From Escherichia phage PHB12, in the sequence record MK524178.1: DNA of 64,000 bases. One strand, given 5' to 3'. The notes under the pieces are model-generated. The model searched no databases and was not told where the DNA came from. It was given only the letters and a program-made list of their open reading frames with translations. Each line of letters opens with the position of its first letter. Within the stretch, counting starts at the first letter, position 1. Both the position numbers and the translations under genes were made by a program. Shown here piece after piece: positions 4,884 through 58,653 of the stretch.

Positions 4884-5833
4884 TATAAAACCTCAATAGC
4901 ATTTCGTAAACCATCAGCTTTTGCATTCAGAGCTTTTAATGATTTAGTTTGTTCTGCAATCTGGGCTTCGACTTCTTTCAGACGAGATTTGAGATATTCG
5001 CGTTCTTCTCTTAAATTATCAACTTTTTCTACTTTAGTCTCTTTAATAGGCTTAGGTTTATACTCGTTAGGGTTCTTCAACTTAATTTGAATGCGAGAAC
5101 TGTATAACATTGAACCATTATCTTCAGTTTCATCATACATTTCTACCACGTCCATAGTCTGTAACATCATACGAAGTTTATAAGACAGCGAACGAACGGT
5201 TTTGTTGCGCTTATTAATTTCTTCGGCTTTCATGGTACCGAGATTACGTGAGTAGTAATAAGGAACCTGGATATCAATTGATAACGATGCAGCGCCATTA
5301 CCGGTTGGTTTGAATACTGCAGTAACCCAATCTTTAACATGAACTTTATTTGTACGACCATCACCGCCTGTGAATAATTTACGTGAATGTTTAAAAAGCA
5401 TATTCACTTGGTTATTGAATTCACAAGCAAATTTATCAGCAAATTTAGTTTCAGGAATGGTAGATAACCAATCAGCCAAATGAGTCTTTTTAACATCGTT
5501 AATAATAGTAAATTCAACCAAATCAGTTTTAGATGTCACAGATTTAATAAAGCTCGGCTTCATAAAGTTTTTAATGTTATCTCGAGCTACAGTAGAAGAT
5601 AATAAACGAGAACGTTTGAACCATTGAAGCAGTGTCCCTAATGAATGAGAATACGCATTCTGAGTATCTTTACAGATATGATTTTCTTGGCCTGTGTATG
5701 TACCAAAATCGCGAAGAATGCCACTTACTACAACTCGGTGTGGAACATCAAATCCTAATAAACCAGAAGCACGTTGGGCATGAACGTTAGCGATAAGACC
5801 TGCAAAATAATCAACATAATGTGAACGTGTCAT
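4883..5833 (-). CDS. hypothetical protein with C-terminal coiled coil, 316 aa
   Basis: ORF track; heptad-like tail (LREEREYLKSRLKEVEAQIAEQTKSLKALNAKADGLRNAIEVL). Confidence 0.6.
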   Translation of the reverse strand: MTRSHYVDYFAGLIANVHAQRASGLLGFDVPHRVVVSGILRDFGTYTGQENHICKDTQNAYSHSLGTLLQWFKRSRLLSSTVARDNIKNFMKPSFIKSVTSKTDLVEFTIINDVKKTHLADWLSTIPETKFADKFACEFNNQVNMLFKHSRKLFTGGDGRTNKVHVKDWVTAVFKPTGNGAASLSIDIQVPYYYSRNLGTMKAEEINKRNKTVRSLSYKLRMMLQTMDVVEMYDETEDNGSMLYSSRIQIKLKNPNEYKPKPIKETKVEKVDNLREEREYLKSRLKEVEAQIAEQTKSLKALNAKADGLRNAIEVL

Positions 5834-5895
5834 AATATTTTCCTCTCGTTAAGATAGAAAGATTATACTCCAACCATCCTTGGTTGTAAACTGAT

Positions 5896-6825
5896 TTATG
5901 ATTTTAATGCATTCATTGCATTAAAAAGTTTAGAGTATTGCAACTGGAGTTTGGTAACTACTTGTTGAGCATCACGAAGCTTAGCTTGTGCTTTGTCAAG
6001 TTCAACAGACAGTTGGTCCACAGTGGCTTTGATTTGATTATAATAGTAATCTTCGGCAGGAAGAAGACCGTTAGAGATTTCCAGTTTAGTCGACGGTGTG
6101 CCGTTAAACATAACAGGTTGTGCTGAAGCTGCATTAATCTTACCGATAGTCGGGGCGACAATAATTGACGCTTCGAACGTTGCATTTTCCTTTTTAAGAT
6201 TTTGATAGTATTCAGAGTCTTTGTGCCACCATGGCGCAGGAACCTTTTTACCAATAGATACACGAGCCTGGATAGCGATATGGCCCTTATTCTTGATAAC
6301 GTCGATAATATTAAGCTCACGAGAATAAATTGCTTTAATCTGGTGGATATTATCACCTAACACTTCCAACGCTTGGTGGAATACACGAGCAACGTTATCA
6401 TTCTTAGGTTTATACGTAAGAGTGAACTCGTTCTCACTGATAACCATGATTTCTAACTTATCGTAAGTATATTTCAAATGTTTCATGTTAATTGCTTGAG
6501 GACGAATACGAGAAGCAATGGCCATCAGATTGTTAAGGTTATTCCGGAACTGCTTAGCGAAATATTGTCCTTCACCGCCAATACAAAAATTACGAAGTTT
6601 CTGTTTGGCTAATAAACGGCTGAACTCACCATTTTTAATGAACTCTTTAACGGGTGTGTTAGTAACGCATTCAAATTGAGTAAACTTACGAGAAGTAATC
6701 CCATAATATGAACAGATTTCCTCAATCTCTTCAGGAGTCTTTACAGGCATACGGATAGGATTAGGACCTGGGGTATATGCGTTAGAGGTAAATTCTTTGA
6801 TAAGTTCTCTACGTGTAATAGCCAT
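5896..6825 (-). CDS. hypothetical protein with C-terminal coiled coil, 309 aa
   Basis: ORF track; own upstream promoter cassette; possibly a distant paralog of the 316-aa neighbour (shared YYY patch). Confidence 0.6.
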   Translation of the reverse strand: MAITRRELIKEFTSNAYTPGPNPIRMPVKTPEEIEEICSYYGITSRKFTQFECVTNTPVKEFIKNGEFSRLLAKQKLRNFCIGGEGQYFAKQFRNNLNNLMAIASRIRPQAINMKHLKYTYDKLEIMVISENEFTLTYKPKNDNVARVFHQALEVLGDNIHQIKAIYSRELNIIDVIKNKGHIAIQARVSIGKKVPAPWWHKDSEYYQNLKKENATFEASIIVAPTIGKINAASAQPVMFNGTPSTKLEISNGLLPAEDYYYNQIKATVDQLSVELDKAQAKLRDAQQVVTKLQLQYSKLFNAMNALKS

Positions 6826-12594: not shown

Positions 12595-12801
12595 CTACCG
12601 ATTGTGTTTTAAATGTTGATAAAGCTCTTCAACTTGTTTAGGGTCCAAAACAATTAAGTCATTTTCTTGGCGAAGATAAATCCATCCCTTATCCCCAGGA
12701 CCATTTTTACAAAACATCACCACCGTATCATCATCTTCAGCGCTTTCAGGTAAAAGTTCAAGTACACCGTCTTCAGATTTTCCAGTATAATCGTAAAGCA
12801 T
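12595..12801 (-). CDS. hypothetical small acidic protein (about 68 aa)
   Basis: ORF track frame; ATG at 12801 preceded by SD GAGGT. Confidence 0.5.
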   Translation of the reverse strand: MLYDYTGKSEDGVLELLPESAEDDDTVVMFCKNGPGDKGWIYLRQENDLIVLDPKQVEELYQHLKHNR

Positions 12802-12808
12802 AATGACC

Positions 12809-12988
12809 TCACATAATCTCGTTAACATACATTTGCAATTCGGTGTGGGCAGATGCCATCTTTTTCATTGCCTTATTGATATCGATATCACCGTCTTCAC
12901 ACCCGTGGGCATTTTCCCAATCGGATACAGCGTTAGCGTACTCTTCAATCAAAAACATTAACTTAGAAATTTTTTCTTTACGTGACAT
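12809..12988 (-). CDS. hypothetical small protein (about 59 aa)
   Basis: ATG at 12988 preceded by SD GAGGAG and an early-promoter cassette. Confidence 0.5.
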   Translation of the reverse strand: MSRKEKISKLMFLIEEYANAVSDWENAHGCEDGDIDINKAMKKMASAHTELQMYVNEIM

Positions 12989-13060
12989 AACGTTCTCCTC
13001 TAGTAAGTAAGGTCTACTATAACACAACCTGAGGAGAAGTAAACTGCTAAATGCAAAAAA

Positions 13061-13086
13061 AGCCCCAACCTTTCGGAAGGGGCTTT
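13061..13086 (-). terminator. hairpin terminator (copy 1 of a 28-nt direct repeat)
   Basis: AGCCCC...GGGGCT stem with U-tract on the minus transcript (and a T-tract on plus). Confidence 0.55.
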
Positions 13087-13088
13087 GA

Positions 13089-13646
13089 TTAGTTTTTGTA
13101 ATATCGTAAAGGGTTGATATGGAATGAAAGCATTGCGCGTGGAATAGGACGACTCAAAAGACTCTTAAGTTTCCAACCACAATAAACACGCAGATAAAAT
13201 GTAATACCACCAACCTTAAGATAAGGTATAGCAGCGAATAATCCCCATGCAGACTCGTTCCAAACTAAAAGATATCCATGATGTGCCGGATCAGGAGATC
13301 CAGATTTAGTTTCGGCGTTGCCTTTATAGTGCCATTCTGATGAAGCTTCGCGACCTAAAACATGATACGAAAAATTATATGCTTTGTTGCGCCATAGCCA
13401 AGCTACGCGTTGAGCATATTTACCTATAACAGGAATTTTACGTATTTTAGACCAACGTTCAACATGGCCGCGGTCACCATCGATAGGATTATCGTAAGTC
13501 ATCATCCAGTCAAAGCCATAAGGTAGTTTACCGGTTTTTTCACTATGGAATGGAACTACAAATGGTGCTAGAATAATTGCTAAAATCGCTGCGATCCAAT
13601 CTATAGGAACAAGAACAACCCAACTTATATATTTTAAAAATTTCAT
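13089..13646 (-). CDS. membrane-anchored protein at the rI.-1 position, 185 aa
   Basis: N-terminal TM segment; minus-sense TATAAATA (late promoter consensus) and SD GAGAGGA immediately upstream. Confidence 0.6.
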   Translation of the reverse strand: MKFLKYISWVVLVPIDWIAAILAIILAPFVVPFHSEKTGKLPYGFDWMMTYDNPIDGDRGHVERWSKIRKIPVIGKYAQRVAWLWRNKAYNFSYHVLGREASSEWHYKGNAETKSGSPDPAHHGYLLVWNESAWGLFAAIPYLKVGGITFYLRVYCGWKLKSLLSRPIPRAMLSFHINPLRYYKN

Positions 13647-13683
13647 ATATCCTCTCTTAGTTTACAAGGATATTTATACAAAA

Positions 13684-13706
13684 AGCCCCAACCTTTCGGA
13701 AGGGGC
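13684..13706 (-). terminator. hairpin terminator downstream of rI (copy 2 of the 28-nt repeat)
   Basis: Same CAAAAAGCCCCAACCTTTCGGAAGGGGC sequence as at 13055-13082. Confidence 0.55.
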
Positions 13707-13713
13707 AGGTAAA

Positions 13714-14016
13714 TTAGATAGATGTAGGCTCTAATTTTATTTTCATGAACTCGGCAAATTGTCTGGCAGTTTTTATGCCTTGTTCATGACATTCAAATGC
13801 ATCATCACAGGGGCTATTTTTGTAATGCTTTACCATATACTTATAGAATTTTTCAGAATTCTCGACATTTTGAATTTCAAACAAAGTATATACGTTTTTA
13901 ATCCCTGATTCCATAAAGTTATCAAAATATGGGTCGGTATACGCAGTGCCAACGATAGGAGTTGTTGCTGCAAAAAACCCCAGCATCGCCACAATGGCTA
14001 TCGCTCTTAAGGCCAT
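13714..14016 (-). CDS. rI: lysis inhibition regulator (antiholin)
   Basis: 100 aa; signal-anchor N-terminus and FMESGI...YKN.PC motifs resemble T4 RI as recalled. Confidence 0.85.
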   Translation of the reverse strand: MALRAIAIVAMLGFFAATTPIVGTAYTDPYFDNFMESGIKNVYTLFEIQNVENSEKFYKYMVKHYKNSPCDDAFECHEQGIKTARQFAEFMKIKLEPTSI

Positions 14017-14028
14017 ATAGGCCTCCTG

Positions 14029-14241
14029 TTAATTTTGGCCAGTATTTATTTTTCGCCTTTGGACGGCCTTAACATCTGCGAGGTATTTTTCCAGCTTACG
14101 CTTACGAGTATAATCTGCTTTAGAACCGGTTTGACGGATATCCTCATTTAAATGAGAAATAGAATGTCCTAATTCTCTTCGGATTTCATCCAATTGGGTT
14201 ACAGTAAGATTACGAAGTTGTCTTTCGTTTAATTGCTGCAT
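14029..14241 (-). CDS. hypothetical protein at the rI.1 position, 70 aa
   Basis: ORF track; sits between rI and tk. Confidence 0.5.
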
Positions 14242-14268
14242 ATATACCTCTTGGTTAGATATTAGTAT

Positions 14269-14850
14269 TTATAACAACCCTGTCAAATCATTCCAATGCT
14301 TCCGGCATAATGACACATATCTATCGGTGTCACCAATTTCAATTTGACTGCCATCTGTAATTGGAAGTCCGTCTTCAGTGACTCTAGCTACCATTGTGGC
14401 CTTTTTACCACAATGACAGACACCTTTAAGTTCAACAAGCTTATCGGCAATAGCCATTAATGCTTGAGAACCTTCAAATAGATTACCTTTAAAATCTGTT
14501 CGTAGTCCATATGCCATTACCGGCACATTGTATACGTCAACAATACGACTAAGTTGATACACCTTTTCAGTAGTTAAGAACTGAGCTTCGTCAACAAATA
14601 CACAATGAATATCCTTTTGTGCTGCAGCCCATTTATAGAATTCAAAGATATCCATGTCTTTTGTAATTATATTGGCGTCCTGACGAATACCAATACGAGA
14701 GACTATTTCACCTTTTGAATCGCGAGTATCAATAGCCGGTTTAAGAACTAATACACCCATGCCACGTTCTTTATAGTTATGTGCGGCAGTAAGTAATGAA
14801 GCAGACTTACCAGCGTTCATAGCGGCATATGTAAAAATTAAACTAGCCAT
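14269..14850 (-). CDS. tk: thymidine kinase
   Basis: 193 aa; P-loop MNAGKSASLL and C-terminal zinc cysteines (CHCGKKAT...CRKH). Confidence 0.92.
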   Translation of the reverse strand: MASLIFTYAAMNAGKSASLLTAAHNYKERGMGVLVLKPAIDTRDSKGEIVSRIGIRQDANIITKDMDIFEFYKWAAAQKDIHCVFVDEAQFLTTEKVYQLSRIVDVYNVPVMAYGLRTDFKGNLFEGSQALMAIADKLVELKGVCHCGKKATMVARVTEDGLPITDGSQIEIGDTDRYVSLCRKHWNDLTGLL

Positions 14851-27663: not shown

Positions 27664-28272
27664 TTATTTCAAAGAGTTAATATATTCTTGTACATCAGCA
27701 GAAGTGGTTTCGACACCGGCTGGAGTGCCGTTGAACGTTTCAACACGAGTCAGAGTGTCTTCGATATCAACCTTAGTCAGTGCAGCAATTTCAATCACAT
27801 CATCAGCCGTAGAGATACCAAGAGCATTGGCTGCTCGAGTTTCACGAATGTATTCGAGTTTGATTGCCAGATTCTGACGAGCGTCATCAAGTTCAACCAC
27901 CTTACGAGCAATTTCAATTCGCATAGCGGCGTACCCGTCAGCTTTTGTATTAAGTTGTTCGGCAGTTCGACGATACAGAAGACCAAGCTTAGCATGCATG
28001 GTAACATCTTGTCCTTCAGCCAAGAGCTTACGAATTTCACGTTCCTTAGAAGCGGCTTGCTTGTTCTTTTCATTAACAAGTTCGCGAATACGTTTTTCTT
28101 CATTAATAGATTTAATAGAAGCCGTTTTTAGTTCTTTGATTTGGGTAATCAACTTATCTGCAGCTGCGTTATACTGTTCTTCGACAGTCAGATTTTTAGC
28201 CATAGCAGTACCCAGTTTAGTGCGGATGAATTCAACAAGTTTCTTCAGTGTGTTCATATTATTACCTTTCAA
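27664..28272 (-). CDS. coiled-coil protein, possibly PspA/IM30-like, 202 aa
   Basis: Heptad-rich and charged throughout, with the length and composition of PspA-family proteins; no motif-level proof. Confidence 0.45.
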
Positions 28273-28327
28273 TTGGTGGTTTATTATCCAATGAGAGCAT
28301 TATACTCTGCTCTCAAGAGTTTGTAAA

Positions 28328-28555
28328 TTATTTTTTAATCAAATTGACATAAAATTCTGCATCTTCAGGGTGCATGCCTTCGCAGTATTCTTCAACCATG
28401 AACTTCTTAACAGCTTCATAAGGGCCACTCAGATTAAGCTTGGTTGTCCAGAACTTGGAATCTTGGGCTGAATCGATACGAACTTCAGGGTGACGGTTGC
28501 GAATAACTTCTTCAGTGTATTCATAATCAACGACATCAATACTAACTGTAGCCAT
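28328..28555 (-). CDS. small acidic protein, 75 aa
   Basis: ORF track. Confidence 0.5.
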   Translation of the reverse strand: MATVSIDVVDYEYTEEVIRNRHPEVRIDSAQDSKFWTTKLNLSGPYEAVKKFMVEEYCEGMHPEDAEFYVNLIKK

Positions 28556-28601
28556 TTTGTTTTCCTCTTGATTTGATGTGATTACTATAACATAAACTTA
28601 C

Positions 28602-28766
28602 TTAGATGTAAATTATTTCAACGTCACCTTTAGCTGCTTTATAACCTTCAGCCCAAGATACAACAGAGTTTTTATCCGAGGATTCAAATTCAGGCATTGG
28701 ACTTTCACCGATATTCACACAGTATGTTTCTTCATTTTCATCGAACCAAATAATTAAAGTAGTCAT
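28602..28766 (-). CDS. small ORF, 54 aa, below the ORF-track cutoff
   Basis: Manual translation MTTLIIWFDENEETYCVNIGESPMPEFESSDKNSVVSWAEGYKAAKGDVEIIYI; SD GAGGAG and a promoter cassette upstream. Confidence 0.45.
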   Translation of the reverse strand: MTTLIIWFDENEETYCVNIGESPMPEFESSDKNSVVSWAEGYKAAKGDVEIIYI

Positions 28767-28937
28767 TTTGTTTACTCCTCTGTAGTTGATAAGTCTATAG
28801 TATCATGTCCTTAGAAGAAGTAAACATCTTTATGAAATATTTTTATGCCCTAGATACCAAAAGGCCCCAACCATAAGGAAGGGGCTAAGCCTTGCGGCAA
28901 CCTTGTCGGGGTTCCACCTGCTAAGGCAAGTGTTTGT

Positions 28938-29095
28938 ACGAAACGCCGGGATTCGAACCCGGTTATTAAGCAGTTGACGCTACTCAATATTTTTAAAAGG
29001 CCATATCTCGACCATATCCGAACGTTCCGTCAAAAACGCTACTCGGCTTATAGCAAAGATATTTCCTCGAATCGATAATTCGGTGCGCCGTTTCT
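28938..29095 (-). ncRNA. candidate stable RNA with a tRNA-like T-arm and acceptor 3' end (possibly related to T4 species 1/2 RNAs)
   Basis: Minus-sense CCGGGTTCGAATCCCGG followed by CGTTTCG, with complementary GAAACG about 150 nt upstream; too long for a tRNA; no long ORF. Confidence 0.3.
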
Positions 29096-29197
29096 GCTGT
29101 GATGTAAGGGGATATTAACGAATCATAAAGATTTATTAAGACCAGTCCTTACACAGGGAACATCAGTCCGACGACTTGCCGGTAGCGACCCGGCTTC

Positions 29198-29542
29198 TTA
29201 TTTTGGCATATTATCAATTTGCTCTCGACGCCGACGCCATAGATTAATCGCTTCATTAACACATTCGGCGTTTAGTATATGACGGCAATAATATAATGAT
29301 TCGCGTTTCTGAAACCGATGTTGCAATGGGATTTCGTTTAAAAGGTCTTTGCGATCAAAGTATTCAAAACTAGTTAACCCGGAACGGTTTTTAATGAACT
29401 TCCAATGACCAAATTCATTTTGGAAATAAACGTAATCAGCGTGTTGATATAACGAATTAATCAACCGGTCGGAAATAACTGTATCCTGTTCGTTAAAATA
29501 AAACGTTAAATCATGAACTACCAGATAAACATTGCCTTTCAT
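29198..29542 (-). CDS. hypothetical protein (about 114 aa from the internal ATG) between the tRNAs and the RNA region
   Basis: ORF track frame; the alternative-start extension would overlap tRNA-Arg, so the internal ATG (MKGNVYLVVHD) is preferred. Confidence 0.45.
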   Translation of the reverse strand: MKGNVYLVVHDLTFYFNEQDTVISDRLINSLYQHADYVYFQNEFGHWKFIKNRSGLTSFEYFDRKDLLNEIPLQHRFQKRESLYYCRHILNAECVNEAINLWRRRREQIDNMPK

Positions 29543-29560
29543 ATTTTCCTCACTTAAAAT

Positions 29561-29637
<77 letters not shown>

Positions 29638-29643
29638 AATATA

Positions 29644-29717
29644 TGACCCAGACCAGATTCGAACTGGTAACCTTTCCCTTATGAGGGGACTGCTGCTAAC
29701 CGTTGAGCTACAGGGCC
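29644..29717 (-). tRNA. tRNA with anticodon CAT (Ile-lysidine or Met type)
   Basis: T-arm ACCAG-TTCGAAT-CTGGT and anticodon loop CTCATAA; acceptor and D stems each carry one mismatch in my hand fold. Confidence 0.5.
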
Positions 29718-29796
29718 TAAATAACTTTCTATTATGAAAGGCACTTTAGAGCACCTTTGGTAATAGAGGGTATGAATTAATAATAACACATAATTC

Positions 29797-30312
29797 TTAA
29801 AGCAAATCAACCATTTTAACGGTTGGCAAAACAATTTCTTTTTCAATATAAGCAAATTCGACACGTTCAACTACACGCAAGAAATCGTAATCATAGTATT
29901 CAGAAGCATAGCCAAGAATATCAATAAGTCCTTGAGATATCTCATCGCCTTTCACAAAGAACAGGTCGAATACGCGGGCTTCGTCTTCTTCAGATTTATC
30001 ACCAAGGTCGACTTCAATATCAAAGACCTTTTTAATAAATTCCGGTTGGAGTTGGTCTGAGAACAGTCCTTCAACCAGATATTCGTAGATAATAAGCGAG
30101 CAACGTCCGAATGGTGTATTACCGCAATAACGTTCGGCTTTAGTGCTAGAATGACGGCTCTTAAATTTCTTAAAGAGATATTTAAACTGTTGGAGCTCAT
30201 GCTCTTCCACTTCAAACAATGTTTTGGTTTTATAGTTGTCACCATCACTTTCATATGTAGTGACATCAATTACGTAGCCCTTAGGAATTGTACTGCCTAA
30301 ACGAATATTCAT
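29797..30312 (-). CDS. hypothetical protein, 171 aa
   Basis: ORF track. Confidence 0.55.
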   Translation of the reverse strand: MNIRLGSTIPKGYVIDVTTYESDGDNYKTKTLFEVEEHELQQFKYLFKKFKSRHSSTKAERYCGNTPFGRCSLIIYEYLVEGLFSDQLQPEFIKKVFDIEVDLGDKSEEDEARVFDLFFVKGDEISQGLIDILGYASEYYDYDFLRVVERVEFAYIEKEIVLPTVKMVDLL

Positions 30313-30316
30313 TTAA

Positions 30317-30607
30317 TCACCATACCATATTAATGTAAGTATACTCAATACATTCAAGATTTAAAGGATTCTTGAAAATATCATATTCAAGAGGGCCTTT
30401 TTCTGTTTCAATAAAGAAATCAAAGTTAACTGTGTTAAATTTATCGTCTTCGCAGAGTAATTTAACCTGTGAAGACGAACGGTCGATATAAACCTTTTCA
30501 ACCTCAAAGTTAGTCAGAATACCGTAGTCATCGACTAGTGCTTTAGCTGCACGTTGGTCGCTTTCATATCCATTCTCAACGGATTTTACCTTAGCATAAA
30601 GAATCAT
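30317..30607 (-). CDS. hypothetical protein, 96 aa
   Basis: ORF track. Confidence 0.5.
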   Translation of the reverse strand: MILYAKVKSVENGYESDQRAAKALVDDYGILTNFEVEKVYIDRSSSQVKLLCEDDKFNTVNFDFFIETEKGPLEYDIFKNPLNLECIEYTYINMVW

Positions 30608-34925: not shown

Positions 34926-35519
34926 TTACCCCTTGTATCCGAGTTTTCTAAGACCATCTTCGGTTAGAACTCGAAATTTTATATTTCTCTTTTCAGCAAC
35001 AGCTGACGCCGCTTTCCATTTATCACAGTTCACAGACCAGGTATATATTTCATTCATATAACGTTTCTTTGCTGCAGTAGTAAGATTTGCAGGCTTAATA
35101 GGTGGTTGAGTTTCTTTCTTTGGTTTTATTTCTACAAAGAACTCTTGACCTGATGCATCTTTCATCCATATGTCCATATAGTATCGACGTTTCTTACCTT
35201 CAGCATTACAAAAATATGGAATTACTGCCGTTTCGCTGCCCCACGCAATAATTTCTGGATTTTTATCCAACCATTCGAAAAAGAATTTTTCCCAGTTTGA
35301 ACGATACGTTATTTTGGTATGGTCTCCACGGTATTTTTTTAAATTTTTTGGGACCCATTTACCAGAGTAGGCCATGTTGTCCTCCTTATAAATAGTATTA
35401 TTATTTATACCAATTTCATATTGGAAGGAGACTATCTTGTTATTTACATTCTTCGACCCAATAGGATATAGTGCTAAAACAGTTAATAAGAACGCACCTA
35501 CTATTCCTATGACAGACAT
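34926..35519 (-). CDS. 4: head completion protein
   Basis: C-terminal about 149 aa begin [11 protein letters not shown]... as in T4 gp4; the ORF-track N-terminal extension is probably untranslated. Confidence 0.8.
35388..35395 (+). promoter_or_regulatory. late promoter TATAAATA upstream of gene 53
   Basis: Exact T4 late-promoter consensus about 45 nt before the gene 53 start. Confidence 0.6.
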
Positions 35520-43634: not shown

Positions 43635-44631
43635 TTCAAGTGTTGTCTATCGTGCGATAGTTACTTCAAAATTTAGAACTGAAAAAATGTTGAATTTCTA
43701 CAATTCAATAGGTGATGGTGATAATAAAAACACCATCTTTATAACGTTTGGTCGGTCTGAACCATGGGCTGCTAATGAAAATGAGGTGGGCTTCGCCCCA
43801 CCATATCCAACAGACTCTGTTTTAGGTGTAACAGATATGTGGACTAACATGATGGGTTTAGTTAAAGTTATCCCATCTATGTTAGACTCGGTTATTCCTA
43901 GACGTGACTGGGGAGATATTCGTTATCCAGACCCTTATACATTCAAAATAAATGATATAGTCGTATGTAATACAGCCCCATATAATGCCACTGAAGTCGG
44001 GGCCGGATGGTTAGTATATCGTTGCGTAGATGTTCCTGATGTTGGGATGTGTTCTATTGAGTCTCTCGACAACAAAGAAGAATGTCTTAAATTAGGTGGT
44101 AAATGGACTCCGTCTGTTAGGTCTTTAACCCCTCCTGAAGGCCGTGGAGATGCTGAAGGGATTATCGAAGTTGGTGATGGATATATATGGGAGTATCTTT
44201 ATGAGATTCCGCCTGATGTGTCTATAAACCGATGTACTAATGAATATATAGTCGTTCCATGGCCGGAAGAAGTTAAAGAAGACCCTGCTCGTTGGGGATA
44301 TGAAAACAATCTAACCTGGCAGCAAGATGATTTTGGCCTTGTTTATAGAGTTAAAGCAAACATAATTCGTTTTAAAGCCTATTTAGACTCAGTTTATTTC
44401 CCTAATGCAGCACTGCCAGGTAATAAAGGATTTAGACAAATTTCTATTATCACAAACCCCTTGGAAGCTAAACTCCGTCCTAATGACCCTAATATAAAGG
44501 CTGAAAAGGATTATTATGACCCCAGAGATTTACAGCGTCATTCTGGTGAAATGATTTATATGGAAAACCGTCCACCTATTATTATGGCAATGGATCAAAC
44601 CGAAGAGATCAATATTTTGTTTATGTTCTAA
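43627..44631 (+). CDS. 8: baseplate wedge protein gp8
   Basis: 334 aa; canonical position. Confidence 0.9.
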   Translation: MNDSSVVYRAIVTSKFRTEKMLNFYNSIGDGDNKNTIFITFGRSEPWAANENEVGFAPPYPTDSVLGVTDMWTNMMGLVKVIPSMLDSVIPRRDWGDIRYPDPYTFKINDIVVCNTAPYNATEVGAGWLVYRCVDVPDVGMCSIESLDNKEECLKLGGKWTPSVRSLTPPEGRGDAEGIIEVGDGYIWEYLYEIPPDVSINRCTNEYIVVPWPEEVKEDPARWGYENNLTWQQDDFGLVYRVKANIIRFKAYLDSVYFPNAALPGNKGFRQISIITNPLEAKLRPNDPNIKAEKDYYDPRDLQRHSGEMIYMENRPPIIMAMDQTEEINILFMF

Positions 44632-44635
44632 TTTA

Positions 44636-44660
44636 GGGAGACTTCGGTCTCCCTTTCGTG
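44636..44660 (+). terminator. intrinsic terminator after gene 8
   Basis: GGGAGAC-ttcg-GTCTCCC hairpin followed by TTTCGTG; identical hairpin recurs after gene 23. Confidence 0.7.
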
Positions 44661-44668
44661 TATAAATA
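44661..44668 (+). promoter_or_regulatory. late promoter TATAAATA for gene 9
   Basis: Exact consensus about 25 nt upstream of the gene 9 ATG. Confidence 0.7.
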
Positions 44669-57964: not shown

Positions 57965-57977
57965 TAAGACGCCTGAT

Positions 57978-58004
57978 GGGCTATTTCGGTAGCCCATATA
58001 AATA
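57978..58004 (+). promoter_or_regulatory. hairpin followed by late promoter TATAAATA upstream of gene 19
   Basis: GGGCTA-tttcg-GTAGCCC stem-loop at 57978-57995, then TATAAATA at 57997-58004. Confidence 0.65.
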
Positions 58005-58569: not shown

Positions 58570-58616
58570 TCTGGTTGGGGAGAAATCCCCAGCTTCCCGT
58601 GATGACGGAGAAGTCC

Positions 58617-58624
58617 ATATAAAT
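58617..58624 (+). promoter_or_regulatory. late promoter TATAAATA for gene 20
   Basis: Exact consensus about 30 nt upstream of the gene 20 ATG. Confidence 0.7.
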
Positions 58625-58653
58625 ATAACTATAATTCCCATTCGGAGAATACA

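Follow-up and report, generated by a model that had tools for sequence, protein, structure and literature searches.

The DNA analyzed here is a stretch of 64,000 nucleotides from Escherichia phage PHB12 (record MK524178.1; hereafter, the window), an RB69-like T4-type phage of the genus Mosigvirus, and the subject of the analysis is a single gene that lies between two copies of a hairpin-forming repeat next to the antiholin gene rI. All genes at this locus are on the minus strand; in the direction of transcription, they are tk, a rI.1-like open reading frame (ORF), rI, a 185-amino acid (aa) ORF of the family DUF7338 (the cargo gene of what we call the cassette), and a DUF7438 gene that is predicted to be early (Table 1). 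The preliminary description of the locus reported an exact 28-nucleotide (nt) direct repeat on both sides of the cargo gene. The repeat is real and does flank this ORF, but the exact repeat found by a repeat search is 27 nt long (AAAAAGCCCCAACCTTTCGGAAGGGGC, at 13057-13083 and 13680-13706, with a spacing of 623 nt); the 28-mer is exact at 13679-13706 and has one mismatch at 13056-13083, where the first base is A and not C. None of 100 dinucleotide shuffles gave two matches to the repeat.

On the coding strand, the sequence of both copies is GCCCCTTCCGAAAGGTTGGGGC followed by a T-run, and each copy folds into a hairpin in which a GC stem of 5 bp and a second stem of 2 bp, separated by a 2x2 U.U internal loop, are capped by a GAAA loop, with a U-tract behind the hairpin (-15.1 kcal/mol for copy B, upstream of the cargo gene, and -17.9 kcal/mol for copy A, downstream of it; z about -3). 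Both have the hallmarks of intrinsic terminators, that is, a GC-rich hairpin, a U-tract and a position after a stop codon on the coding strand, in agreement with the preliminary description of each copy as a terminator-like hairpin. Neither copy is listed in a simple terminator scan of the window because the internal loop breaks the stem rule of the scanner. Copy B shows no differences in six other cassette-bearing Mosigvirus genomes. Stem pair 2-21 is C-G, G-C or U-A depending on the lineage, a pattern of variation that is consistent with selection on structure. A single intrinsic-terminator hairpin, the T4-type terminator that follows rnaC (see below), is present here in two copies as the 27-nt repeats.

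Past copy B, the preliminary description noted a minus-sense TATAAATA and a Shine-Dalgarno (SD) sequence, and both are indeed present ahead of the cargo gene. This combination has the form of a T4-type late promoter, with TATAAATA, no -35 element, and a location shortly upstream of the SD and the start codon. The motif and the 5' untranslated region are perfectly conserved in 7/7 cassette-bearing genomes compared (the window and six relatives), and the late promoter arrangement of Dhakavirus (see below) is homologous to that of the window cassette. The position of TATAAATA and its perfect conservation, in Dhakavirus as well, add weight to the promoter reading, and a late promoter for the cargo gene appears plausible. 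The contention that the cargo gene is uniquely late among early neighbors was not upheld: a second TATAAATA precedes the rI.1-like/rI pair, so the cargo gene is not the sole late-looking gene here. The only gene at the locus with a clear early promoter and a GGAG-type SD (AGAGGAGAA, which includes GGAG) is the downstream DUF7438 gene. The early promoter begins 11 nt past the T-run of copy A and is kept in relatives with and without the cassette. Copy A and this promoter form a putative composite of the PeSL type that would drive the DUF7438 gene. PeSLs are repeated terminator/promoter composites that flank small ORFs, with recombination deleting, inserting or permuting the ORFs (Arbiol et al., 2010, PMC2839356; Comeau et al., 2014, PMC4122927).

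Table 1. Features of the rI locus and of the rnaC site in the window (positions in the window; activities of promoters and terminators are predicted).
Feature	Position	Strand	Remarks
tk	14269-14850	minus	
Second TATAAATA	14266-14273	minus	Upstream of the rI.1-like gene and rI
rI.1-like ORF	14029-14241	minus	
rI, antiholin gene	13714-14016	minus	Pfam Antiholin PF24205, E 1e-23; GenBank annotation of relatives; terminated by copy B
Repeat copy B	13680-13706	minus	Hairpin 13706-13685 (GCCCCTTCCGAAAGGTTGGGGC) and U5 at 13684-13680; 7 nt after the rI stop codon
TATAAATA, T4-type late promoter -10 element	13671-13678	minus	One base past the T-run of copy B; 24-nt leader to the ATG
SD of the cargo gene, GAGAGG	13651-13656	minus	4 nt ahead of the ATG at 13646; GGAG (RegB-type) motif absent
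Cargo gene, 185-aa DUF7338 ORF	13089-13646	minus	Between hairpin copies B and A
Repeat copy A	13055-13083	minus	Hairpin 13083-13062 and U7 at 13061-13055; 5 nt after the DUF7338 stop codon
Early sigma-70-like promoter	13016-13043	minus	TTTACT, 16 nt, TG-n-TATAGT; 9/12 matches, with TG
DUF7438 gene, early	12809-12988	minus	Downstream of the cassette; Pfam PF24219; RB69 annotation mobD.2a
Third hairpin copy, GCCCCTTCCTTATGGTTGGGGC	28864-28885	minus	Stem identical to the rI-site copies; loop CCATAAGG compared with CCTTTCGG; no cargo
Early promoter after the third hairpin	28797-28826	minus	GTTTAC ... TACTAT; homologous to the promoter after the downstream hairpin of the Dhakavirus cassette
rnaC/rnaD-like stable RNA region	28886-29200	minus	Upstream of the third hairpin; 88-98% identity to the Tequatrovirus and Mosigvirus stretch annotated rnaC/rnaD

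The region 12600-14300 (a 1701-bp query) matched 155 phage records, with 85.5-97.8% identity; these records are filed as Mosigvirus wherever the taxonomy was inspected. The comparison relied on GenBank phage records because a search of IMG/VR yielded only 3 rI loci. The full query, including the cassette of ~623 bp, is present in 22 of the 155 records. Among the records sampled down the ranking, nearly all match in two pieces that span 1076-1080 bp, with ~624 bp missing, and the few exceptions to the two-piece pattern, including the divergent phage ESCO47, likewise lack the cassette. A single hairpin is found at the rI site in SF, RB69, Av-05, ST2, KAW3E185, mobillu and AV113. In these empty sites, the hairpin has the flank of copy A on its left and that of copy B on its right, with the rI stop region on one side and the early promoter on the other side, which is the exact product expected of a crossover between copies A and B. 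The suggestion that the repeats mark a cassette gained or lost by recombination is therefore borne out by the synteny check, in which most relatives are without the gene and keep one hairpin. The preliminary description had also named a finding that would speak against such a cassette, namely, repeats at the same sites in all relatives around an invariant gene, together with early transcription; as far as synteny is concerned, this is not what is seen, given that most relatives lack the gene altogether.

Among the seven cassette-bearing genomes, the cassette is 96.7-99.5% identical, a diversity of the same order as that of the rI-side flank (95.9-99.4%). FL18, which carries the cassette, and mobillu, which does not, are 99.3% identical on the rI side, and the left flank closest to that of the window comes from the cassette-less phage SF. 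Presence or absence of the cassette is unrelated to flank similarity, so the polymorphism is old relative to the isolates and was either reassorted or recurrent. In KMB38, both copies of the repeat are extended on the 5' side by TAATCAAA. The same TAATCAAA, which is the 3' flank of the cassette, precedes the solo hairpin of the divergent, cassette-less ESCO47 and suggests a scar of an earlier cassette loss. Both loop variants, GAAA and TTAT, are seen at rI as well as at rnaC when different Mosigvirus genomes are compared.

Several individual records from this comparison deserve mention. ST2 (OM982647.1, L081) is a 171-kb record with a T4-type rI-tk region and a cassette-less rI site, and its GenBank label, Guernseyvirinae, with the genus Kagunavirus, is evidently wrong. 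Av-05 (NC_025830.1; L046, L070; 120,938 bp) combines an empty Mosigvirus rI locus with a DUF7338 copy at 5601-6140 that is ~57% identical to the window protein and has tRNA genes within about 100-350 nt. This combination and the odd length of the genome point to an assembly that is chimeric or mixed. In TH58 (L002, about 1650-2230), the DUF7189 gene region, located downstream of the cassette, contains ~265 additional bases, which are unrelated to the cassette and apparently represent a partial duplication or an insertion, with a small ORF containing a transmembrane segment inside. The match to SA35RD spans ~265 bp more than the matches to other cassette-less genomes. After rI, T4 and phage 212 carry another gene (rI.-1) and another terminator, and rI.-1 was rejected as an equivalent of the cargo gene: it encodes an unrelated protein of 127-128 aa and overlaps the rI stop codon. 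Likewise, the DUF7438 gene was considered and rejected as an ortholog of T4 mobD.5, to which it shows no similarity.

The preliminary description mentioned, in passing, a third, diverged copy of the repeat at 28861. This copy exists, at 28864-28885, but is not a side detail: it is the orthologous original, corresponding to the conserved terminator that T4-type phages have downstream of rnaC, where the cluster of tRNA and stable RNA genes ends. At this position, T4 has GCCCCGACCGAAAGGTTGGGGC followed by T5, with a perfect 9-bp stem and a GAAA loop. Orthologous hairpins are labelled in GenBank as 'terminator' in Aplg8 and fPS-90 and as 'pot. stem-loop structure; pot. terminator' in the T4 record X03016. 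The 36-mer that comprises the hairpin, the T-run and TATAAATA occurs at 1047 places in 732 phage records, once per genome in most Tequatrovirus and two or three times in Mosigvirus and Dhakavirus. A search of positions 28000-30500 against Rfam retrieved two tRNAs alone, with no family for the hairpin or for the rnaC/rnaD region, the latter being highly conserved with T4.

The rnaC site is itself occupied by cassettes in some genomes. In Dhakavirus MX01, rnaC is followed by GGCCCTTCCGAAAGGTTGGGCC, a T-run, GTATAAATA, a homologous leader, DUF7338, the hairpin again and an early promoter. The same order of hairpin, late promoter, DUF7338 and hairpin is found at rnaC in Dhakavirus JS98 and WG01 (75-77% aa identity for DUF7338 in MX01, JS98 and WG01), where the second hairpin is followed by another TATAAATA and a different gene, which we denote geneX; in L010, geneX comes first and DUF7338 second. 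In Mosigvirus APCEc01, the order is rnaC, hairpin, geneX, hairpin (with the TTAT loop) and early promoter; in Tequatrovirus Aplg8, it is rnaC, hairpin, TATAAATA and geneX; and in the PHB12 window, rnaC, the TTAT hairpin and the early promoter follow one another without cargo. Contig L009 has the exact Mosigvirus hairpin at this site.

GeneX constitutes a second hairpin-flanked late cassette. It encodes a protein of ~154 aa that starts with MKSYAEFL or MKTYNEFL and has no Pfam hit, and it is located at 1494-1958 in L075 (APCEc01), from 3561 in L011 and L012, and at about 720-1170 in L074. The gene is present in some Mosigvirus, Dhakavirus and Tequatrovirus, and is absent from T4 and from positions 28830-28864 of the window. 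As for the adjacent tRNA cluster, ARAGORN identifies two tRNA genes in the window (Arg-tct and Met-cat; 29561-29717), compared with nine in the locus of Tequatrovirus Aplg8, and a 130-aa ORF without a Pfam hit (29198-29590) overlaps the 3' part of tRNA-Arg.

The cargo protein matches DUF7338 (PF24027) over residues 1-184 of 185, with a score of 209 bits against a gathering cut-off of 27, and also belongs to PHROG 2143 (phrog_2143, E 4e-79). It consists of an N-terminal transmembrane helix (residues about 2-33) and an alpha/beta domain that is predicted with confidence (pLDDT 94.3), and the strongly conserved motifs of the family include TYDNPIDGDxGHxERW, AWLWRNKAYN and GWK. Residues D52, H61, R64, W83-N87, R153 and K159 are invariant. 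The charge distribution suggests an N-in, C-out topology, and the C-terminal domain is probably periplasmic; the protein is predicted to be an N-terminally anchored envelope protein, with late timing expected from the promoter motif. Proteins with at least 95% identity are found only in the 22 Mosigvirus records, with the next relatives at 75-78%. No relative of known structure or function is detectable in sequence and structure searches; with regard to characterized holins and antiholins, Pfam gives DUF7338 alone and BFVD gives uncharacterized family members alone, and the 'holin' label in a few GenBank records is an unsupported annotation. A literature search did not find a paper on DUF7338, and the main text of the PhageMaP study of Bas63, a Felixounavirus with a DUF7338 homolog, does not discuss the gene.

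A role in lysis or lysis inhibition had been proposed on the basis of the adjacency to rI. This argument does not hold, given that the adjacency is confined to the 22 Mosigvirus records and in other genera the gene resides in tRNA regions. In Karamvirus, Felixounavirus and an unrelated contig, the DUF7338 gene is inside tRNA arrays, 9-70 nt from the flanking tRNAs, and in Pseudotevenvirus it is near two tRNAs. The arrays (L025-L048, L068 and L007/L014-L017) come from unrelated phage groups: in Felixounavirus, DUF7338 is 20 nt past one tRNA and 9 nt ahead of the next (17 and 10 nt in contig L068), and in Karamvirus PG7, it is flanked by tRNA-Phe and tRNA-Met. Given that DUF7338 is located at or inside a tRNA cluster in other genera, the rI neighborhood reflects where a hairpin copy happened to be, and the adjacency to rI is uninformative with respect to the function of DUF7338.

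A different context is seen for distant homologs (33-37% identity) in three phage contigs of 40-60 kb, where the gene lies between tail fiber genes and genes for a signal-anchored (SAR-type) lysozyme and Rz/Rz1 spanins (2968-5899 in L062, 2995-4085 in L057 and 2968-4859 in L059). In L062, DUF7338 overlaps a gene for a 95-aa protein with one transmembrane segment, and next in order are the gene for the signal-anchored Phage_lysozyme, an HNH gene and a gene for an Rz-like spanin, in which a lipoprotein ORF is embedded. In L057, the DUF7338 gene directly abuts the lysozyme gene. Such placement in a lysis cassette, which is observed in these distant phages but not in T4-like phages and Felixounavirus, where the gene is in tRNA regions, is a weak hint at an envelope or lysis role that is independent of the adjacency to rI; a lysis role of DUF7338 is neither shown nor excluded.

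Considering all these observations, we believe it likely that the hairpin repeats bracket an insulated one-gene unit that is exchanged by recombination between terminator hairpins, in the manner of PeSLs but with a late promoter. Under this scenario, copy B would halt transcripts arriving from rI, the cargo gene would be read only from its own gp55-type late promoter, and copy A would end the cargo transcript just ahead of the early promoter of the next gene. Because copies A and B are identical direct repeats, a crossover between them is possible; catalyzed by the recombination or replication machinery of the phage, it would delete the unit and leave one hairpin, and the reverse reaction could insert such a unit at any resident copy of the hairpin. 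With respect to history, the unit probably arose at the rnaC terminator, where it is still found in Dhakavirus and in a Gaprivervirus-like contig; it would have reached the 3' end of rI in an early Mosigvirus together with the hairpin, to be followed by repeated loss or reassortment, with most Mosigvirus, including RB69, keeping a solo hairpin as the presumed rI terminator. The solo hairpins after rI would then be scars of cassette loss.

Several points weigh against this interpretation. The activity of the terminator and of the late promoter is a prediction that draws on motifs, on folding, on sequence conservation and on the way orthologs are annotated. A 2x2 U.U internal loop interrupts the hairpin, compared with the perfect 9-bp stem of the T4 copy, and the simple scan missed the hairpin; such an imperfect hairpin may only attenuate transcription. 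In the AT-rich window, TATAAATA occurs 15 times, compared with 8.3 +/- 3.0 expected, an enrichment of only about two-fold, and therefore the motif alone is weak evidence. The 22 cassette-bearing records include about 12 siblings, the LF82-x isolates, such that the number of independent lineages is nearer a dozen. Neither a mini-circle nor a donor with a near-identical cassette was found, the nearest DUF7338 protein outside Mosigvirus being 77-78% identical, and the distribution may reflect either ancient gain with repeated loss or repeated gain. Finally, 27 bp is short for homologous recombination, and the same product would also result from replication slippage between the repeats.

The latter possibility can be formulated as an alternative in which the cassette comes and goes as an indel, by replication slippage or template switching at hairpin-forming direct repeats; such a copy-choice process would be independent of UvsX/UvsY and would involve neither homologous recombination nor mini-circles. 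Short, palindromic direct repeats are classic substrates for slippage, with respect to the homology reportedly needed for recombination in T4 ('<50 bp patches', PMC2839356), 27 bp is at the low end, and the KMB38 junction is at a CTAA microhomology. Slippage nevertheless accounts for the loss of the unit and not for its presence at a second locus 15 kb away, the swapped order of cargo genes in Dhakavirus and the exchange of loop variants between the loci call for intermolecular or ectopic exchange, and mini-circles have been demonstrated experimentally for PeSLs. We accordingly regard slippage as an unlikely explanation.

A more far-reaching possibility is that the rnaC-type hairpin and TATAAATA make up a dedicated, portable docking site for late single-gene cassettes across T-even genera, similar to an integron and possibly with a structure-specific protein that would recognize the GCCCC...GGGGC stem, and that DUF7338 is an unrecognized envelope or lysis-timing protein. 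Hints in this direction come from the topology of the protein, with a single membrane pass and a large domain that is probably periplasmic (an architecture shared with the T4 holin T), from the endolysin and spanin neighbors in distant phages, and from rI next door. We consider this combination speculative and rather improbable.

It appears very unlikely that the cassette is a site-specific mobile element, with a dedicated nuclease or recombinase (a homing endonuclease or, following Mosig, a protein that binds GGGC/GCCC) targeting the hairpin and the 27-nt repeat serving as an attachment or target site. Arbiol et al. speculate that the GGGG...CCCC stem-loop is a protein target, citing T4 deletions at GGGC/GCCC motifs, and a homing endonuclease gene is located near the rnaC locus in LF82-4. 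However, the 623-bp unit consists of one ORF, DUF7338, without a nuclease or recombinase signature; no endonuclease gene linked to the rI site was found in the window or in the relatives; and the junctions vary in T-run length and, in KMB38, by an extension, as predicted by homology-driven exchange. Equally improbable, and already disfavored by the data, is convergence, that is, two independent look-alike terminators, built of GC stems and stable tetraloops, with no part in gene gain or loss: although T4-type phages reuse GNRA and UUCG loops, and GC-rich hairpins of other sequences precede TATAAATA elsewhere in the window (for example, at 44661, 57997 and 58618), copies A and B agree at all 27 nt, even in the unpaired UU/UU and in the loop, the outer flanks are joined to exactly one copy at the empty site of roughly 130 relatives (as sampled), and lineage-specific variants (GGCCC..GGGCC in Dhakavirus) are common to both copies of a genome, which implies common descent or conversion. 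A target-site duplication of a transposon was rejected outright, given that the 'duplication' is a predicted functional terminator that is present at empty sites and at another locus.

Recombination between terminator hairpins, the interpretation we favor, places the PHB12 unit close to the PeSLs. As in PeSLs, small non-essential ORFs of hyperplastic regions have a terminator stem-loop and promoter elements on both sides, the difference between close relatives is exactly the ORF that the elements enclose, with one chimeric element remaining at the empty site, and the cargo has a promoter and a terminator of its own, with a GC-run stem of the GGGG...CCCC type. The stable intergenic stem-loop characteristic of PeSLs is found here in silico, as indicated by the folds, the compensatory stem pair and the annotations of orthologs. 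There are also clear differences. Copy A with its early promoter fits the published PeSL description, whereas copy B, coupled to TATAAATA, does not, which makes the pair half PeSL and half a late-promoter counterpart; a middle-promoter variant, PmSL, has been reported (Comeau et al., 2014, PMC4122927), but a late promoter on the upstream copy represents a class that is not described in either PMC2839356 or PMC4122927. The common repeat is a stem-loop with a T-run (27 nt) rather than a conserved composite of ~100 bp, and the element is not a motif specific to a phage pair but the deeply conserved terminator of the rnaC/tRNA operon, shared by Tequatrovirus, Mosigvirus, Dhakavirus and a Gaprivervirus-like contig. 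Furthermore, PeSL mini-circles have been detected experimentally (PMC2839356), whereas the PHB12 unit is known here from sequence comparison.

Compared with the T4 rnaC terminator, which follows the species 1 RNA, the window copy at 28864-28885 is orthologous in position, and its stem differs only at the two bases of the U.U loop; the rI-site copies likewise differ from the T4 hairpin by two bases (TT for GA). The T4 terminator is a single-copy element followed by ~130 nt and the e.8 early promoter, whereas the PHB12 element has spread to a second locus, with a copy on either side of a cargo gene and coupling to TATAAATA. The cassette also resembles the morons of lambdoid phages (Hendrix et al., 2000, as discussed in PMC2839356) in adding one gene, equipped with a promoter and a terminator, between resident genes, a gene that close relatives lack. 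The acquisition of morons is attributed to illegitimate recombination, and their expression is often from the prophage; here, in contrast, exchange would rely on homology supplied by the hairpin, the phage is virulent, and the predicted promoter is of the late lytic type. By analogy only, the empty sites are reminiscent of the formation of solo long terminal repeats (LTRs), where recombination between direct repeats removes the cargo and leaves one repeat, and the varied cargos and gene orders at one joint are reminiscent of integron arrays; there is, however, no integrase, no attC/attI site and no LTR element, the repeats being transcription terminators of 22-27 nt.

Other parts of the window show related arrangements. 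GC-rich hairpins lie directly upstream of TATAAATA on the plus strand at 44630-44668, 57975-58004 and 58600-58625 (for example, gggagacttcggtctccc and gggctatttcggtagccc), so the composite of a terminator and a late promoter recurs in the late gene region, with differing hairpin sequences. In addition, two TATAAATA motifs on opposite strands, 7 nt apart (35387-35394, plus; 35409-35402, minus), resemble back-to-back divergent late promoters.

Overall, the original observation is confirmed, and it amounts to a real, if modest, extension of a mechanism already described rather than to a new principle. It widens the PeSL idea, in that recombination at stem-loops would cover a unit with a late promoter as well, and identifies the rnaC/tRNA-operon terminator of T-even phages as a likely joint for gene shuffling, both at two loci separated by 15 kb and across at least four genera. 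It also offers an explanation for a presence/absence difference that is frequent among therapeutic and model RB69-like phages. DUF7338 is a widespread phage membrane protein, predicted to be well folded and without known relatives, and isolates with and without the cassette represent a natural experiment that could reveal its function.

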